A DNA stretch of 8,093 nt from a virus. Taxonomy: Duplodnaviria > Heunggongvirae > Uroviricota > Caudoviricetes. The position numbers and the translations under genes are program-made. The stretch lies in IMG/VR virus record IMGVR_UViG_2630968500_000006; one strand, written 5' to 3'. Below are positions 1 to 8,093 of the stretch, in pieces. The notes beneath the pieces are model-generated. The model was given only the letters and a program-made list of their open reading frames with translations. It was not told the DNA's origin and made no database searches. Position 1 is the stretch's first letter, and every line of letters starts with the position of its first letter.

Positions 1-37
1 AGCTTGGGAAGAAATGACCTGCTTATTCGCACCTTCC
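1..37 (+). mobile_element. IS5-family insertion sequence, terminal inverted-repeat end only (element body lies outside the window to the left)
   Basis: Positions 22-37 read CTTATTCGCACCTTCC, the reverse complement of GGAAGGTGCGAATAAG, which I recall as the IS5 terminal inverted repeat (16/16). It is followed at 38-41 by CTAG, the preferred IS5 target tetranucleotide. The 20 bp inside the repeat differ from my recollection of IS5 itself, so this is a family-level call. Only 37 bp are visible. Confidence 0.55.
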
Positions 38-491
38 CTAGGGACTTTTCCGGGTTGTCCGGGCTAGGAATGGGAACTTTAAATCCTTCCAGCATGGGTT
101 TTCTTATCGAAATGGCGGTAGCACCCACACTTTTTGTCAAGATGTACTGCTTAAAGCTAGATGACATGAAGTAATACAAAAACTTCGTGTCTACGGCATT
201 AGTTGTGATACGAATTCTATACGCCCTTTGATGTAGAGCATATTTCCCCTCAACATAGTGAAATATGTCGCCAATTCCACCTTCACCAGGAATGACTATT
301 GCTACCTCATCAAATTCAAAGGTATCTGACTTCAAGATATTCTTTGAGCGAACATAGAATGGATAAATTCCATTTTCGCTTTCATCCTGACGATTTGAGC
401 TTCCAGTACCGATATCTGCCATAGAACCCAATGTTACCCACTCAACCTCAACCCCATCCAACAGTTTTTCCAGATAGCTCAGCTCGCTCAT
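38..491 (-). pseudogene. hsdS: Type I restriction-modification specificity subunit HsdS, N-terminal target-recognition domain fragment; reading frame runs into the IS5-like end after the motif PIPSPDNPEKSL
   Basis: Hand translation of the minus strand from ATG at 491-489 gives [151 protein letters not shown], then continues into IS-derived sequence (GKVRISRSF...). The start overlaps the hsdM stop in an ATGA arrangement (488-491). The N-terminus (MSE.SYLEKLLDGVEVEW) and the P.PDNPEKSL motif match my recollection of EcoR124-type HsdS. The ORF track omits it because there is no in-window stop. If the IS call is wrong, this is simply a partial hsdS CDS running off the window edge. Confidence 0.7.
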
Positions 492-2050
492 GCCTGTACC
501 TCTCTGCCTTCAATTCTAGCCACGATCGCATCAATGTCTTGGCGTAACTGGTCGATTTTGCTGACCGTGGTTTTCAGCTCTGCATTCAACTCAGCGATAT
601 CGATAATTTCGCGAGTATCTTTCGCTTCCACATAGCTGCTCACCGACAGGTTATAGTCATTCGCTACAACGGCTTCAAACGCGACAGATTTCGCCAGATG
701 AGCAACATCTTCCTTGCTGGCAAATACCTGCATAATCTGTTCGATATGGGCGTCGGTCAGGATATTGTTGTTAGTCTCTTTTTTGAACAGTTCGCTGGCG
801 TCAATAAACTGAACTTTGGTATCCGTTTTATGCTTAGACAGCACCAGAATGTTTACTGCAATGGTGGTGCCAAAGAACAGGTTCGGTGCCAGTGAAATTA
901 CGGTTTCGACATAGTTATTATCGACCAGATACTGACGGATTTTCTGCTCTGCGCCGCCACGGTAAAAAATACCCGGGAAGCAGACAATCGCAGCACGACC
1001 TTTGGCCGAAAGATAGTTCAGCGCATGTAGTACAAACGCAAAGTCAGCTTTGGATTTGGGGGCCAGAACGCCAGCCGGGGCAAAACGCTCATCGTTAATC
1101 AGCGTCGGGTCATCGCTGCCAATCCATTTCACCGAATACGGTGGGTTAGATACGATGGCGTCAAACGGTTTTTCATCTCTGAAGTGCGGCTCAGTCAGTG
1201 TATTACCCAGCTTGATATCAAACTTGTCGTAGTTGATATTGTGCAAAAACATGTTCATACGCGCCAGGTTATAGGTCGTATGGTTGATTTCCTGACCGAA
1301 AAAGCCTTCTTCGATGATGTGGTTATCAAACTGTTTTTTCGCCTGCAACAACAGTGAGCCGGAACCCGCTGCCGGGTCGTAGATTTTGTTAACGCTGGTC
1401 TGCCCGTGCATAGCCAGTTGTGCAATCAGCTTGGAGACGTGCTGCGGTGTAAAGAACTCGCCGCCTGACTTACCGGCATTTGCCGCATAGTTAGAAATCA
1501 GGAACTCATAGGCATCACCGAACAGGTCAATCTGATGTTCGTTGAAGTCACCAAGTTTTAACCCTTCAACCCCTTTCAGAACCGCAGCCAGGCGGGCATT
1601 TTTATCTTTAACGGTGTTACCCAGGCGGTTACTGGTGGTATCGAAATCAGCAAACAAACCTTTGATGTCAGCTTCTGAAGGATAACCGTAAGCAGAACTT
1701 TCGATAGCAACGAAGATGCTGTTTAAATCTGCATTCAGTCTGTCATTAGTATTTGCTTTCGCCGCTACGTTGCAGAAAAGCTGACTGGGGTAGATGAAGT
1801 AGCCTTTAGTTTTGATGGCATCGTCTTTAATGTCATCAGTAATTACGCTGTCATCCAGTTTCGCATAACAGATACTGTCATCACCGGCTTCAATATAGCT
1901 GGAAAAATTTTCGCTGATAAAACGGTAGAAAAGTGCGCCCAGAACGTATTGCTTAAAATCCCATCCATCGACCGAACCCCTGACATCGTTAGCAATTTGC
2001 CAGATTTGACGATGAAGCTCTGCACGTTGTTGAATACTTGTCATTTTCAT
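488..2050 (-). CDS. hsdM: Type I restriction-modification N6-adenine DNA methyltransferase subunit HsdM (EcoR124-like, type IC), 520 aa, apparently intact
   Basis: 520-aa ORF from the track. It carries the SAM-binding motif [10 protein letters not shown] and the catalytic motif NPPY typical of N6-adenine methyltransferases. Length and N-terminus ([25 protein letters not shown]) fit my recollection of EcoR124-family HsdM. Translationally coupled to hsdS downstream. Confidence 0.93.
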
Positions 2051-2226: not shown

Positions 2227-2448
2227 ATGCAATCCATTAACTTCCGTACCGCGCGCGGCAACCTTTCTGAAGTGCTCAACAATGTTGAGGCCGGGGAAGA
2301 GGTTGAAATCACCCGCAGAGGCCGTGAGCCAGCAGTAATTGTCAGCAAGGCTACTTTCGAAGCCTACAAAAAAGCGGCGCTGGATGCTGAATTTGCATCC
2401 CTGTTTGACACCCTGGACTCCACCAACAAGGAACTGGTTAACCGATAA
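2227..2448 (+). CDS. phd: Phd antitoxin (prevent-host-death), 73 aa
   Basis: The ORF product [73 protein letters not shown] matches my recollection of bacteriophage P1 Phd in sequence and length. Ribosome-binding site upstream. The stop TAA (2446-2448) overlaps the doc ATG (2448-2450). Confidence 0.95.
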
Positions 2449-2828
2449 TGAGGCATATATCACCGGAAGAACTTATTGCGCTTCATGATGCGAATATAAG
2501 CCGCTACGGCGGCCTGTCGGGAATGTCAGATCCGGGTAGGGCAGAGGCCATTATCGGGAGAGTTCAGGCCAGAGTTGCCTACGAAGAGATCACCGACCTT
2601 TTCGAAGTCTCCGCCACCTACCTGGTGGCTACGGCGAGAGGGCATATATTCAATGATGCCAATAAGCGTACCGCGCTAAACAGTGCGCTGCTATTTCTAC
2701 GCCGTAACGGGGTGCAGGTATTTGATTCACCTGAACTGGCAGACCTTACTGTAGGCGCTGCGACTGGCGAGATATCTGTATCTTCTGTCGCCGCCACGTT
2801 ACGTAGATTGTATGGTTCTGCGGAGTAG
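2448..2828 (+). CDS. doc: Doc toxin (death-on-curing), Fic-fold kinase, 126 aa
   Basis: 126-aa product with the Doc-type Fic motif HIFNDANKR (HxFx[D/N][A/G]NKR). Translationally coupled to phd. Size and sequence are as recalled for P1 Doc. Confidence 0.95.
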
Positions 2829-3039: not shown

Positions 3040-4083
3040 GTGAAAGCCATTATTACTCCCTTTGTACAAAAAGAGCTTGGCGTCGCCACATTCAAAGTGG
3101 ATCAGGAAGTCAGAAAGCTGGTGGAGGCTGGCCGTAAATTTATTATGGAGCCGGTGCCGCGTGAGTTAATCGAGCACATGGACGACGGCCTCGTTGTTTC
3201 CGAGCAAACTATGGCAACAAATGAGGCGTTGCAGCCGTTTTTTAACAGCGATGAACTGTTTCGCCGTATTGGTGGAATTGACTCGCTGGTGGCGTGGTTG
3301 CGCAGGAAAGAGGGGCAATGCCAGGCCGCAGATCGTAGTTGGTGTGACAACCATATTGTCCACGCTGAACGAGACAATAGCGCGGTGTTGTTGTGCTGGC
3401 ATCACGATAACCATTACCGGATGCGTGGTTTTAATGAGCTGAAAGAAACGCTGCACAATAATCGCGTTAACTGGATACTGGATGTCGCCCGTCAGGAAAT
3501 GGGGCTTTCAGATGGCCATGATTTAAGTATTCAGGAACTGTGCTGGTGGGCTTTCATGTGCAACATGATGCACCTGATGCCGGAAGAAGTTTGCCGTATA
3601 TCAATAAATAAGATGAAAGCCGCAACGCAGGATAGCGGACCTCTGAAAGAGGCGGATATTCGCCCGTATGACGATCGCGCTACAGCATATGTTCAGATGA
3701 TGGAAGAACGCGCCGCGCCGATGCGTGCAAAAGTATGCCCTGTGGATGTTGACTCCGACCCTGGCATGGCGCATTTCAAAATACCAAAACTGCAATCGCT
3801 AAAATTACCTGAGTACATGGACTTTGTTGCTTCCCGTCCATGCTGTGGGTGCGGAGCGGCGGGAGCTGGCGCTCACATTACGCCTTATATCGTTCGTCAT
3901 AGTCGATTATGCGCGCATGACATTTACGCAATTCCTCTGTGCCAGTCATGCCAGCGTGATATTGAGCGTGACCGCGATAATTGGGAGAAGACGCACGGTA
4001 GGCTGGCGATGCATCAACGATTGTTCTTTGATTACGCGCTTGGAGTCGGCGTTATCACAAGTCATTCGTCGAGTGTTAGATAA
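3040..4083 (+). CDS. Hypothetical Cys/His-rich protein, 347 aa, GTG start; two HNH-like or zinc-ribbon-like motifs; positionally equivalent to a P1 post-doc gene (pdcB?), assigned by synteny only
   Basis: Long ORF with a GTG start preceded by AAAGGTG (3028-3034). It has 13 Cys and 16 His in 347 aa, clustered as [25 protein letters not shown] and PCCGCG...H...RH..LCAHD...PLCQSCQ. No overlapping ORF of comparable length on either strand. Confidence 0.75.
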
Positions 4084-4171: not shown

Positions 4172-4624
4172 ATGTTACTTAACTGGCAGGGACGCCACTT
4201 CATGGAAATAAATCACTCACGAATAACATCGTACGAGATTGCGGATTACATGATCCGCACTAAATCTCTTCTATCAGCGAAAGAACTCGCAGCAATTCTT
4301 GAAAAGGAATACCCGCATCTGGATGTCGATAAGCGCGATGTTTATCTGCGCTTAAAGGCTATCGCTGTGTCTAAGTATTCGTCTGTTTTGATTGATGACA
4401 GTACACGCCCACGTAGATTTCAGATCCACTCTCTGAATCCTGAATTCTTTCGCCGCAGCCGCGCTCCGCGCCGGTTTGATGAAAAACTCCAGAACGAACT
4501 CTATATGACGCAGGACGAAAAGGAACGCCGGGAGCACCAGCCTTGGGTAATGGCGCGTCAACTTTTCAATAAGGTGGTCCGTCAGCACCGTCATTACGGT
4601 AATGCCACATCCGCACGTATCTGA
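4172..4624 (+). CDS. lpa: Late promoter activator Lpa (P1 gene 10 product), 150 aa
   Basis: 150-aa ORF directly upstream of pacA and downstream of a C1-operator-controlled promoter, with a ribosome-binding site AGGTGA (4162-4167). The call rests on synteny with P1 (phd-doc ... lpa-pacA-pacB) and expected size. I do not reliably recall the Lpa sequence itself. The start could instead be ATG 4202 (MEINHSR...), though that has no Shine-Dalgarno. Confidence 0.7.
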   Translation: MLLNWQGRHFMEINHSRITSYEIADYMIRTKSLLSAKELAAILEKEYPHLDVDKRDVYLRLKAIAVSKYSSVLIDDSTRPRRFQIHSLNPEFFRRSRAPRRFDEKLQNELYMTQDEKERREHQPWVMARQLFNKVVRQHRHYGNATSARI

Positions 4625-4710: not shown

Positions 4711-5904
4711 GTGACCTGGGACGATCACAAGAAGAATTTTGCTCGCCTGGCGCGAGATGGTGGTTACACCATCGCACAATATGCCGCCGAGTTTAATCTC
4801 AACCCAAACACCGCACGTCGTTATCTCCGTGCATTCAAAGAAGACACCGGAACAGCGGATAGCCGTAAGCCAAATAAGCCTGTCAGGAAACCACTAAAAA
4901 GCATGATCATTGATCACGCTAATGATCAACGTGCAGGTGATCACATTGTGGCTGAAACGGCTGAAAAACAAAGAGTTAATGCTGTTGTCAGTGCCGCAGT
5001 CGAGAACGCTAAGCGCCAAAATAAGCGCATAAATGATCGTTCTGATGATCATGACGTGATCACCCGCGCCCACCGTACCTTACGTGATCGCCTGGAACGC
5101 GACACCCTGGATGATGATGGTGAACGCTTTGAATTCGAAGCTGGCGATTACCTGATAGATAACGTTGAAGCGTGGAAGGCCGCGCGCGCTATGTTGCGTC
5201 GTTCCGGAGCTGATGTTCTGGAAACCACTCTTCTGGAAAAGTCTCTTTCTCATCTCCTTATGCTGGAGAACGCCCGGGATACGTGTATTCGCCTGGTGCA
5301 GGAAATGCGCGATCAGCAAAAAGACGATGATGAAGGTACTCCGCCTGAATACCGTATCGCGAGCATGCTAAACAGCTGTTCCGCGCAGATAAGCAGCCTG
5401 ATCAACACCATTTACAGCATCCGGAATAACTATCGAAAAGAAAGCCGGGAGGCGGAAAAGCACGCTTTGTCTATGGGGCAAGCTGGCATTGTTAAGCTGG
5501 CATACGAACGAAAGCGTGAAAATAACTGGTCAGTGCTGGAAGCAGCTGAATTCATCGAGGCGCATGGCGGGAAAGTGCCGCCCCTGATGCTGGAGCAAAT
5601 CAAAGCCGATCTGCGTGCTCCTAAGACCAATACCGATGATGAGGAAAGGCAAACAGCCGTCGGTGGCCCTTCTCTTGAAGATCTGGACAAAGTTGCGCGA
5701 GAACGGGCCGCCAACCGCCGCGCCGATGCCGCATTGTGGATTGAGCAGCGTAGGGAAGAAATCGCCGATATCGTTGATACAGGCGGTTATGGGGATGTTG
5801 ATACTGAAGGTGTATCAAACGACCCATGGCTGGAACAAGACCTGGACGAAGACGAGGAGGAAGACGAAGAAGTCACCCGCAAGCTATACGGGGATGATGA
5901 TTAA
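4711..5904 (+). CDS. pacA: PacA, terminase small subunit (pac-recognition subunit), 397 aa, GTG start
   Basis: 397-aa ORF with ribosome-binding site AGGAAG (4700-4705). Contains the hexamer array characteristic of the P1 pac site in its 5' region. N-terminal helix-turn-helix-like segment and acidic C-terminal tail. The stop TAA (5902-5904) overlaps the pacB ATG. Confidence 0.93.
4904..5062 (+). other. pac packaging (cleavage) site: seven TGATC(A/G) hexamers, four left and three right of a central region, each containing a Dam GATC
   Basis: Hexamers read directly from the sequence: TGATCA at 4904-4909, 4911-4916, 4923-4928, 4938-4943; TGATCG at 5034-5039; TGATCA at 5046-5051 and 5057-5062. 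The 4 + 3 arrangement over about 160 bp inside pacA is the known architecture of the P1 pac site. Confidence 0.85.
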
Positions 5905-7418
5905 TGGCCAGAAGTTGCGTAACGGATCCACGTTGGCGCGAGCTGGTGGCGCTATATCGTTATGACTGGATTGCGGCCGCTGATGTTTTGTTCGGCAAAA
6001 CACCTACCTGGCAGCAGGATCTGATTATTGAGTCTGTGCAGGAACAGGGTAGCAAGACATCTGTTTCGTCTGGTCACGGTACCGGGAAATCAGACATGAC
6101 TTCTATCATGATCATGTTGTTCATAATCATGTATCCCGGTGCCCGCGCCATTATCGTTGCGAACAAAATTCAGCAGGTAATGACCGGTATATTCAAGTAC
6201 ATCAAGATAAACTGGGCTACTGCCACCAGCCGTTTTCCATGGCTTGCTGATTATTTTGTTCTGACAGAAACCGCTTTCTATGAGGTTACTGGTAAAGGTG
6301 TATGGACTGTAGTACCGAAGGGCTTTCGTCTGGGAAGTGAAGAAGCTCTCGCCGGTGAACACGCAGATCATCTTCTGTATATTATCGATGAAGCCTCCGG
6401 TGTCAGTGATAGAGCTTTCGGTATCATCACCGGTGCTCTTACCGGACAGGATAACCGCATCTTATTACTGTCACAGCCTACACGCCCAAGCGGCTATTTC
6501 TACGATACTCACCATAAACTGGCCAAGCGTCCTGGTAACCCAGATGGCGTTTATACGGCGATCACGCTTAACAGTGAGGAATCACCGCTGGTAACGCCAG
6601 AATTTATCAAAATGAAGCTGGCGGAGTACGGCGGGCGTGATAACCCTATGTACATGATTAAGGTGCGCGGCCTATTCCCTAAATCACAGGACGGCTTCCT
6701 TCTTGGACGTGATGAGGTTGAACGTGCAACGCGGCGGAAAGTTAAGATTGCCAAAGGATGGGGCTGGCTTGCATGTGTGGACGTTGCTGGTGGTACGGGA
6801 CGGGATAAGTCAGTTATCAATATCATGATGGTGTCCGGCCAGCGAAATAAACGCCGTGTAATCAACTATCGAATGCTGGAATACACAGACGTTACAGAAA
6901 CGCAGCTTGCCGCCAAAATTTTCGCAGAATGTAATCCTGAGCGATTCCCCAATATCACCATAGCGATAGATGGAGATGGCCTGGGTAAAGCAACAGCGGA
7001 TCTGATGTACGAGTATTATGGTATTACCGTACAGCGTATACGCTGGGGTAAAAAGATGCATAGCCGTGAAGATAAGAGCCTGTACTTTGATAAACGTGCT
7101 TATGCCAACGTTCAAGCCGCAGAGGCCGTAAAATCTGGTCGTATGAGACTGGATAAGGGTAATGAAACTATTGAGGAAGCGTCGAAAATCCCTGTAGGGA
7201 TTAACTCCGCAGGTCAATGGAAGGTGATGAGTAAGGAGGATATGAAGAAAAAACTCAACCTGCACTCACCAGACCATTGGGATACATATTGTTTCGCTAT
7301 GCTGGCGGATTATGTTCCCCAGGATGAAGTGCTTAGCGTCGAAGACGAAGCGCAGGTTGATGAGGCTCTGGCATGGCTTAATGAATTAATATTTGCTCTA
7401 ATAAATTGTGTTTTTTAA
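5904..7418 (+). CDS. pacB: PacB, terminase large subunit (ATPase/nuclease), 504 aa
   Basis: 504-aa ORF translationally coupled to pacA. P-loop/Walker A-like SGHGTGKS and Walker B-like [10 protein letters not shown]. Position and size as in P1. Confidence 0.93.
7392..7408. promoter_or_regulatory. C1-repressor operator-like 17-mer TTTGCTCTAATAAATTG overlapping the last codons of pacB
   Basis: 15/17 match to ATTGCTCTAATAAATTT. It shares the 10-mer TTGCTCTAAT with the lpa operator at 4085-4101. Two occurrences of such a 10-mer in 8 kb are very unlikely by chance. Confidence 0.45.
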
Positions 7419-7533
7419 CTACCGATGTTACATTGAGCCTGACCTCTTGCGCCTTGAGGCATTTTCGGTTTATGCTTATCAGGCACCTCATTAAAACGGG
7501 TGCCGGGATTGGCCTCCCGCTTAAGTCTAAGGC

Positions 7534-7567
7534 GATACAGACGCCGCTCGCGTCTTTTTTTTGTATC
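7534..7567 (+). terminator. Candidate rho-independent terminator downstream of pacB: GACGC-CGCTC-GCGTC hairpin followed by T8, nested within an outer GATACA/TGTATC inverted repeat
   Basis: Inner stem 7540-7544 / 7550-7554, then eight T (7555-7562). Outer arms GATACA 7534-7539 and TGTATC 7562-7567. On the minus strand the run is A-rich before the hairpin, so it is oriented for plus-strand termination. Confidence 0.5.
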
Positions 7568-7727
7568 GGCGTACACGCACACCTCTACAATGGTGGGCTG
7601 TATGGGGCTACCTTCGGGTAGGCTGGTTACCTTGGACGCCAGTAAGGCCAACTCCGTACAGTCCACCGCCAGCAAGATTGGTCTCTTCTGCGGTGGTTAC
7701 ATACCAACGTCTAAGGAGGCTGCCAAT

Positions 7728-7949
7728 ATGGCTACTATCCCTACCCCAACTCATCCTGAATTTATCTGGCGCTTTTACTCCTGCCAAAAACGTCACTATC
7801 ACTTCGTTATTGCACCAACAGAAGATGAGGCCCGCTCTCAGCTTCCTGACGCCCCATGTATTTTCTCTGCCCGTTTTTCCACTGATTCACGCAATTCTCT
7901 CAGTTACTGGTGCCTCCCTGTTAACGCTTCTGCTCAGGAGGGACTATGA
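7728..7949 (+). CDS. Hypothetical small protein, 73 aa
   Basis: ATG at 7728 preceded by a consensus Shine-Dalgarno AAGGAGG (7713-7719) with 8-nt spacing. It is the 3' part of the 149-aa track ORF 7500..7949, whose upstream portion spans the terminator and lacks a ribosome-binding site. Product MATIPTPTHPEFIWRFYSCQKRHYHFVIAPTEDEARSQLPDAPCIFSARF... has no motif I recognise. Confidence 0.4.
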   Translation: MATIPTPTHPEFIWRFYSCQKRHYHFVIAPTEDEARSQLPDAPCIFSARFSTDSRNSLSYWCLPVNASAQEGL

Positions 7950-8056
7950 GAACGTCATTAGTCACCCGTGAAGAGATGATCGAGGCAATTGAACAGCACA
8001 CTGCCTGTATCAGTACCAGGGATATACCAGGCGTTATTGCCAACTACTTCATGTGA
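7946..8056 (+). CDS. Hypothetical very small protein, 36 aa, translationally coupled to the preceding ORF
   Basis: ATG 7946-7948 overlaps the upstream stop (ATGA) and is preceded by GGAGGG (7938-7943). Product MRTSLVTREEMIEAIEQHTACISTRDIPGVIANYFM. All three plus-strand frames close between 8054 and 8093. Not in the ORF track, presumably because it falls below the length cutoff. Confidence 0.25.
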   Translation: MRTSLVTREEMIEAIEQHTACISTRDIPGVIANYFM

Positions 8057-8093
8057 CCTGCCCCCACGATTAGATACAACACTCAGTTAGTAA

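Follow-up and report, generated by a model that had tools for sequence, protein, structure and literature searches.

The closest described relatives of the restriction-modification cassette considered here are EcoR124I and EcoR124II of the R124 plasmid, which share its hsdM-hsdS-hsdR gene order, the full length of its HsdM and the conserved regions of its HsdS. In HsdS the central helix (D1) and the C-terminal helix (D2) form an antiparallel coiled coil that spaces and inverts the two target-recognition domains and so positions two HsdM subunits, and in EcoR124I HsdS two TAEL repeats are present (PMC3874165). Palindromic specificity has been described for truncated Type IC specificity subunits: in EcoR124I HsdS(delta-50) about 160 residues are missing from the C-terminus, most of the second recognition domain among them, EcoDXXI::Tn5 has a Tn5 insertion within that second domain, and the natural NgoAV is described as being of similar size and composition (PMC3874165). 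Since these truncations lie in or after the second recognition domain, the active forms retain D1, which pairs with itself in a homodimer. The insertion sequence (IS) ISKpn26, a common element related to IS5, inserts at CTAG with a 4-bp duplication (PMC8023600), and its copy in acrR of Klebsiella pneumoniae is a simple, gene-splitting insertion with the same CTAG target, the same 4-bp duplication and a DDE transposase. The locus described here differs from the known ISKpn26 and IS5 disruptions only in the target gene, which in this case is hsdS on an Escherichia coli P1-like plasmid.

The stretch of DNA analysed (the window, 8093 bases) is an exact substring, at 100% identity, of the reverse complement of NZ_CP060066.1, the 148,192-bp plasmid unnamed1 of E. 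coli strain G5 (assembly GCF_014295295.1); a literature search on plasmid CP060066 found no paper. In RefSeq the order of genes in this record is hsdM, a subunit-S pseudogene, the ISKpn26 transposase, a second subunit-S pseudogene and a split hsdR, the first pseudogene lacking its C-terminus and the second its N-terminus according to PGAP. The disruption as such is therefore already known, with hsdS recorded as a split pseudogene flanking the ISKpn26 transposase.

Beyond the cassette, the window consists of P1-like phage-plasmid backbone: phd (2227..2448), doc (2448..2828), a DUF968/PdcB gene (3040..4083), lpa (4172..4624), pacA (4711..5904), pacB (5904..7418), icd and a truncated ant. Rfam matches above the gathering score were obtained for isrK (7483..7560, plus strand; 60.8 bits) and the C4 antisense RNA (7586..7673, plus strand; 75.9 bits). 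Both precede icd and ant, a position at which the P1 immunity region would be expected to have its C4 RNA. Punavirus records, for instance vB_EcoM-673R5 and RCS47, share this backbone at 96-98% identity. The Escherichia phages vB_EcoM-673R5 and phi456 have the same backbone genes (phd, doc, pdcA/B, lpa, pacA/B, c4 and icd) and, in the same place, a related Type IC hsdM-hsdS-hsdR cassette divergent from phd, whereas phage P1 carries humD where the cassette sits (the 2044-2227 region of the window). The first recognition domain of both phages is different from that of the window, the match ending at about window position 438, and no IS is annotated in the hsdS of vB_EcoM-673R5. P1-like elements seem to have a variable defence locus at the cassette site, with shuffling of recognition domains.

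Two genes of the cassette are seen in the window, both on the minus strand. The gene hsdM (488..2044) is intact and encodes 518 amino acids, of which residues 1-517 align to 3-519 of the 520-residue EcoR124II HsdM with 1139.6 bits; the product also covers the TIGR00497 hsdM model (651 bits) and has PF02384 and PF12161 matches. The absence of decay in hsdM, which the sequence-only reading had pointed out, is thus borne out over the full length of the protein. The hsdM stop codon overlaps the start codon of hsdS (ATG at 491..489, within ATGA at 491..488). What follows is only a 5' fragment of hsdS (39..491), consisting of the N-terminal conserved segment and target-recognition domain 1 in 151 native codons, with one partial match to the Pfam family Methylase_S (PF01420, E = 2.2e-14). 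The native codons end in ...VPIPSPDNPEKSL (...KVPIPSPDNPEKSL), the last codon being CTA at 41..39 within the CTAG at 41..38. The reading frame then runs 15 codons into foreign sequence (GKVRISRSFLPKLTR) and meets a stop just beyond the window, so that a product of 166 amino acids would result.

The foreign sequence is the end of an ISKpn26 element. The terminal 37 nt of the element occupy 1..37 (annotated on the plus strand), immediately next to one copy of the CTAG target (38..41), the second copy being located beyond the far IS end, outside the window. Read on the minus strand, bases 37..1 are GGAAGGTGCGAATAAGCAGGTCATTTCTTCCCAAGCT. The 16-mer GGAAGGTGCGAATAAG occurs a single time in the window (22..37, minus strand) and was found in none of 200 dinucleotide-preserving shuffles, even when 2 mismatches were allowed, which argues that these features are not a chance match. 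In the source plasmid the complete element measures 1196 bp (positions 9564..10759 of the extracted NZ_CP060066.1 locus, L001) and has CTAG immediately at both ends. Its terminal repeats are of the IS5 type, beginning GGAAGGTGCGAA (GGAAGGTGCGAA[T/C]AAG), and the two ends agree at 15 of their first 16 bases. Compared with IS5A of K-12, the mean column identity is 95%, with no difference in the first 17 bases at the window end, the divergence being located mostly in the approximately 150 nt that adjoin the end visible in the window. The single open reading frame of 326 amino acids matches PF01609 (DDE_Tnp_1, E = 1.6e-35) and the IS5-family transposase model NF033581, an NCBIfam equivalog, with 367 bits against a cutoff of 140; it is intact and is named by PGAP 'IS5-like element ISKpn26 family transposase'. 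As the transposase gene runs toward the window, the 37 nt correspond to the right (3') inverted-repeat end, downstream of that gene. All the IS5-family features tested, namely the terminal repeats, a 4-bp YTAR/CTAG duplication and a single DDE transposase, were present. The name ISKpn26 would follow from the PGAP annotation, the length of 1196 bp and an identity of 97.8-99.7% to copies annotated as ISKpn26.

The sequence-only reading had recognised an IS5-family end directly at the point where hsdS breaks, and this was accurate to the base, bases 37..1 being an end of ISKpn26, which as a whole is approximately 95% identical to IS5 of K-12. The CTAG that it took for the target is indeed duplicated at both ends of the element, the IS5-family element does continue beyond position 1, and the residues GKVRISRSF... 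that prolong the frame are encoded by the IS and are not genuine HsdS sequence. The far side of the element also held what had been expected there, a second CTAG and the rest of hsdS.

The relation of the break to the architecture of HsdS was established by in-silico excision of the IS together with one CTAG. This operation yields an uninterrupted HsdS of 402 residues, which over 1-402 aligns to residues 1-404 of EcoR124II HsdS (PDB 7BST, chain 7bst_A) with E = 2e-71, and the distal half of the gene beyond the IS is in frame and free of any further lesion. In its N-terminal segment and C-terminal region the restored protein is nearly identical to EcoR124II HsdS, while both target-recognition domains differ, so the ancestral specificity would have been unlike that of EcoR124. 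The central region contains two TAEL repeats, differs from the EcoR124II region at one residue (T/K) and begins directly after the break. In EcoR124II HsdS the sequence IPIPCPDNPEKSL, with the motif PDNPEKSL, directly precedes the central conserved region AIQSEIV..., as the sequence-only reading had stated for EcoR124-type subunits. Because IPIPCPDNPEKSL abuts AIQSEIV..., the IS sits precisely where target-recognition domain 1 gives way to the central helix, and the insertion parts that domain from everything downstream, in agreement with the earlier claim that all sequence past the first target-recognition domain is cut off. The Type IC features tested were likewise all found, HsdS having the two-domain layout with TAEL repeats, and HsdM and HsdR being close to those of EcoR124.

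The junction was searched with a 600-nt query by megablast against the complete genomes of E. coli (20,395 records) and, in a second search, against PLSDB (72,556 plasmids). Among these approximately 93,000 records it was spanned only by NZ_CP060066.1. Another 34 E. coli records covering at least 80% of the query carry hsdS alleles, and among the E. coli matches listed the alignments of hsdS alleles end at window base 38 or 40, that is, at the CTAG. In PLSDB the best intact hsdS alleles show 100% identity as far as base 38, where the alignment stops. Since the intact alleles align to base 38 only, the homology of the hsdS family ends at the CTAG/GGAAGG boundary; on the far side of the IS the intact alleles resume matching at CTAG. 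The two flanks, over 123 and 114 nt, are 100% identical to intact alleles.

These observations are, with very high confidence, accounted for by an apparently recent insertion of ISKpn26 into a CTAG of a Type IC hsdS, with predicted inactivation of the system. A single copy would have transposed into a CTAG within the hsdS of a Type IC cassette carried by a P1-like phage-plasmid, and the insertion point falls between two codons, where target-recognition domain 1 passes into the central conserved coiled-coil helix. Neither the central helix nor target-recognition domain 2 nor the C-terminal helix would be present in the predicted product of 166 amino acids (151 native and 15 encoded by the IS). 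A protein of this kind could not build the coiled-coil scaffold by which the two recognition domains are spaced and the two HsdM subunits held; because of this, the methyltransferase would be left without DNA specificity and the system would almost certainly be inactive.

A second insertion affects the same cassette. Outside the window, hsdR of the source plasmid (L001 11640-15822) is split by IS903B (1057 bp), whose transposase RefSeq lists as 'IS5-like element IS903B family transposase' and which is flanked by a perfect 9-bp duplication, TAGAAAAAT; its excision in silico restores an open reading frame of 1038 amino acids. The HsdR fragment has matches to PF12008 (EcoR124_C), HSDR_N and SWI2_SNF2, and its distal part is named 'EcoR124 family' by PGAP. 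Hence, the cassette has received two independent clean IS insertions, IS903B in hsdR besides ISKpn26 in hsdS, and departs from EcoR124 in these two interruptions as well as in its recognition domains. As hsdR is interrupted in the source plasmid, restriction would be lost whatever the state of HsdS. We infer the loss of both the methyltransferase and the restriction activity, and the most likely present state would be an intact HsdM deprived of specificity, with no functional HsdS and no HsdR in the source plasmid.

The event looks recent. The two halves of hsdS, hsdM and the transposase are free of secondary lesions, the CTAG duplication is perfect, the flanks match intact alleles and the junction is present in one record, all of which supports the recent date that the sequence-only reading had proposed from the state of hsdM; the term is relative and carries no absolute date.

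Whether a piece of the split gene could still act as a specificity subunit has to be weighed for each half. For the downstream half, translation from an internal ATG would give a half HsdS of 226 amino acids containing a segment like the N-terminal conserved one, recognition domain 2 and the C-terminal helix. The segment at this ATG mirrors the natural N-terminus of HsdS, the fragment has no other lesion, and an engineered N-terminal deletion of EcoDXXI HsdS is active with the palindromic specificity of the C-terminal domain (PMC3874165). If this reading were true, the phage-plasmid would acquire a new methylation specificity from the fragment together with HsdM, a palindromic one that repeats in nature the engineered EcoDXXI deletion. 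Its expression, however, needs transcription through or out of a 1.2-kb IS that is oriented antisense to hsdS. A consensus scan for promoters and terminators, covering the surroundings of the IS and the distal hsdS fragment, detected nothing promoter-like close to the distal junction; in total it counted 3 promoter-like sites, against a shuffle mean of 4.0. Moreover, in-frame stops within the IS precede the downstream fragment, and only a weak GAG is found upstream of the internal ATG. We therefore regard a functional downstream half as speculation with a very small probability.

For the upstream half, the 166-residue fragment would itself be a functional half HsdS, two copies of which, with HsdM, would methylate a palindrome made of two first half-sites. 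The Type IC truncations cited at the outset provide the precedent, and the fragment is coupled in translation to an intact hsdM. The precedent does not extend to the point of truncation, however. In HsdS(delta-50) and EcoDXXI::Tn5 the truncation falls inside the C-terminal recognition domain or beyond it, so that D1, which 'zippers with itself', is kept (PMC3874165), and delta-50 keeps about 244 of 404 residues, against the 151 native ones retained here. The present fragment breaks directly before D1, ending in ...PEKSL followed by 15 unrelated IS residues with no TAEL helix. Thus, while delta-50, EcoDXXI::Tn5 and NgoAV keep D1 for homodimerisation, the fragment has lost it; the combination that defines an active half HsdS, a recognition domain with D1 kept, was looked for in the 166-residue product and is absent from it. 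EcoDXXI::Tn5 nevertheless resembles this case in being a Type IC truncation caused by a mobile element in hsdS. As the native sequence ends one residue before D1, a dimerising truncated subunit is very unlikely, slightly more so than an active downstream half, and this alternative, which the sequence-only reading had offered as the less likely one, is weaker than was stated there because the published active truncations keep D1 and the fragment does not.

That the junction is an assembly artefact is scarcely credible: the plasmid does carry several ISKpn26 copies of 97.8-99.3% identity and many other IS, and such plasmids misassemble easily, but a misplaced copy would not yield a perfect 4-bp CTAG duplication with hsdS halves that are exactly contiguous after removal of the IS and one CTAG, and the copy in hsdS differs from the other ISKpn26 copies of the plasmid.

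ISKpn26 has reached hsdS in a related plasmid too. In NZ_CP050041.1 (plasmid pCD63-2-1) a copy 99.7% identical and in the same orientation, with a CTAG duplication, is located at a different CTAG of hsdS, at codon 20/21 (L007 3875-5070). This plasmid has the same phd/doc-hsdM arrangement, and the first recognition domain encoded by its hsdS allele is a different one. The records NZ_CP092453.1 and NZ_CP092450.1 gave the same two-piece match to the distal junction. In the window CTAG is found at 5 positions (38, 64, 157, 516 and 2140), against approximately 31 expected from the base composition, a strong depletion, and all except the last fall within 38..516, where the 5' fragment of hsdS adjoins the end of hsdM. 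With the CTAG sites concentrated in this way, hsdS would be the main IS5-type target of the region. Since hsdS holds most of the CTAG sites of the window and the hsdS of pCD63-2-1 was also struck, insertion of ISKpn26 into hsdS of related plasmids suggests a recurrent route of inactivation.

Inactivation of restriction-modification genes by insertion sequences is commonplace, and the case adds one further example of IS-mediated inactivation of a defence system on IS-rich plasmids, with little import beyond annotation. With hsdS struck by ISKpn26 and, in the source record, hsdR by IS903B, a P1-like phage-plasmid would have lost its Type IC restriction-modification barrier. The host could become more permissive to foreign DNA as a result, and the plasmid's own DNA could be left without the Type IC methylation mark.

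The P1-type phage records that the G5 plasmid matches are mostly 89-115 kb long, and it exceeds them by about 50 kb. Its cargo, of a chromosomal type and distributed among many IS copies, includes a lac operon (lacI-lacZ-lacY), ompC and the gene of a very large protein with Ig-like domains, adjoining transport genes of the TolC and HlyD families (L006, NZ_CP060066.1 1-50000). Several of its phage genes are pseudogenes, and as a phage the plasmid may have ceased to be viable.

At its right edge, too, the window ends in an IS, the IS3-like ISSen4, which begins TGTGACCTGCCCCCACG... at about 8054 (8054-8093) and truncates the P1 antirepressor gene ant, of which a pseudogene remains at 7946..8053. 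The window is thus bounded on both sides by IS ends of about 40 nt each. At the left edge, a partial 'EAL domain-containing protein' pseudogene annotated by PGAP extends on the plus strand from within the IS end to window position 42, and in the program-made list an open reading frame of 56 amino acids (4..174, plus strand) crosses the IS/hsdS junction; both look like annotation noise produced by the junction.
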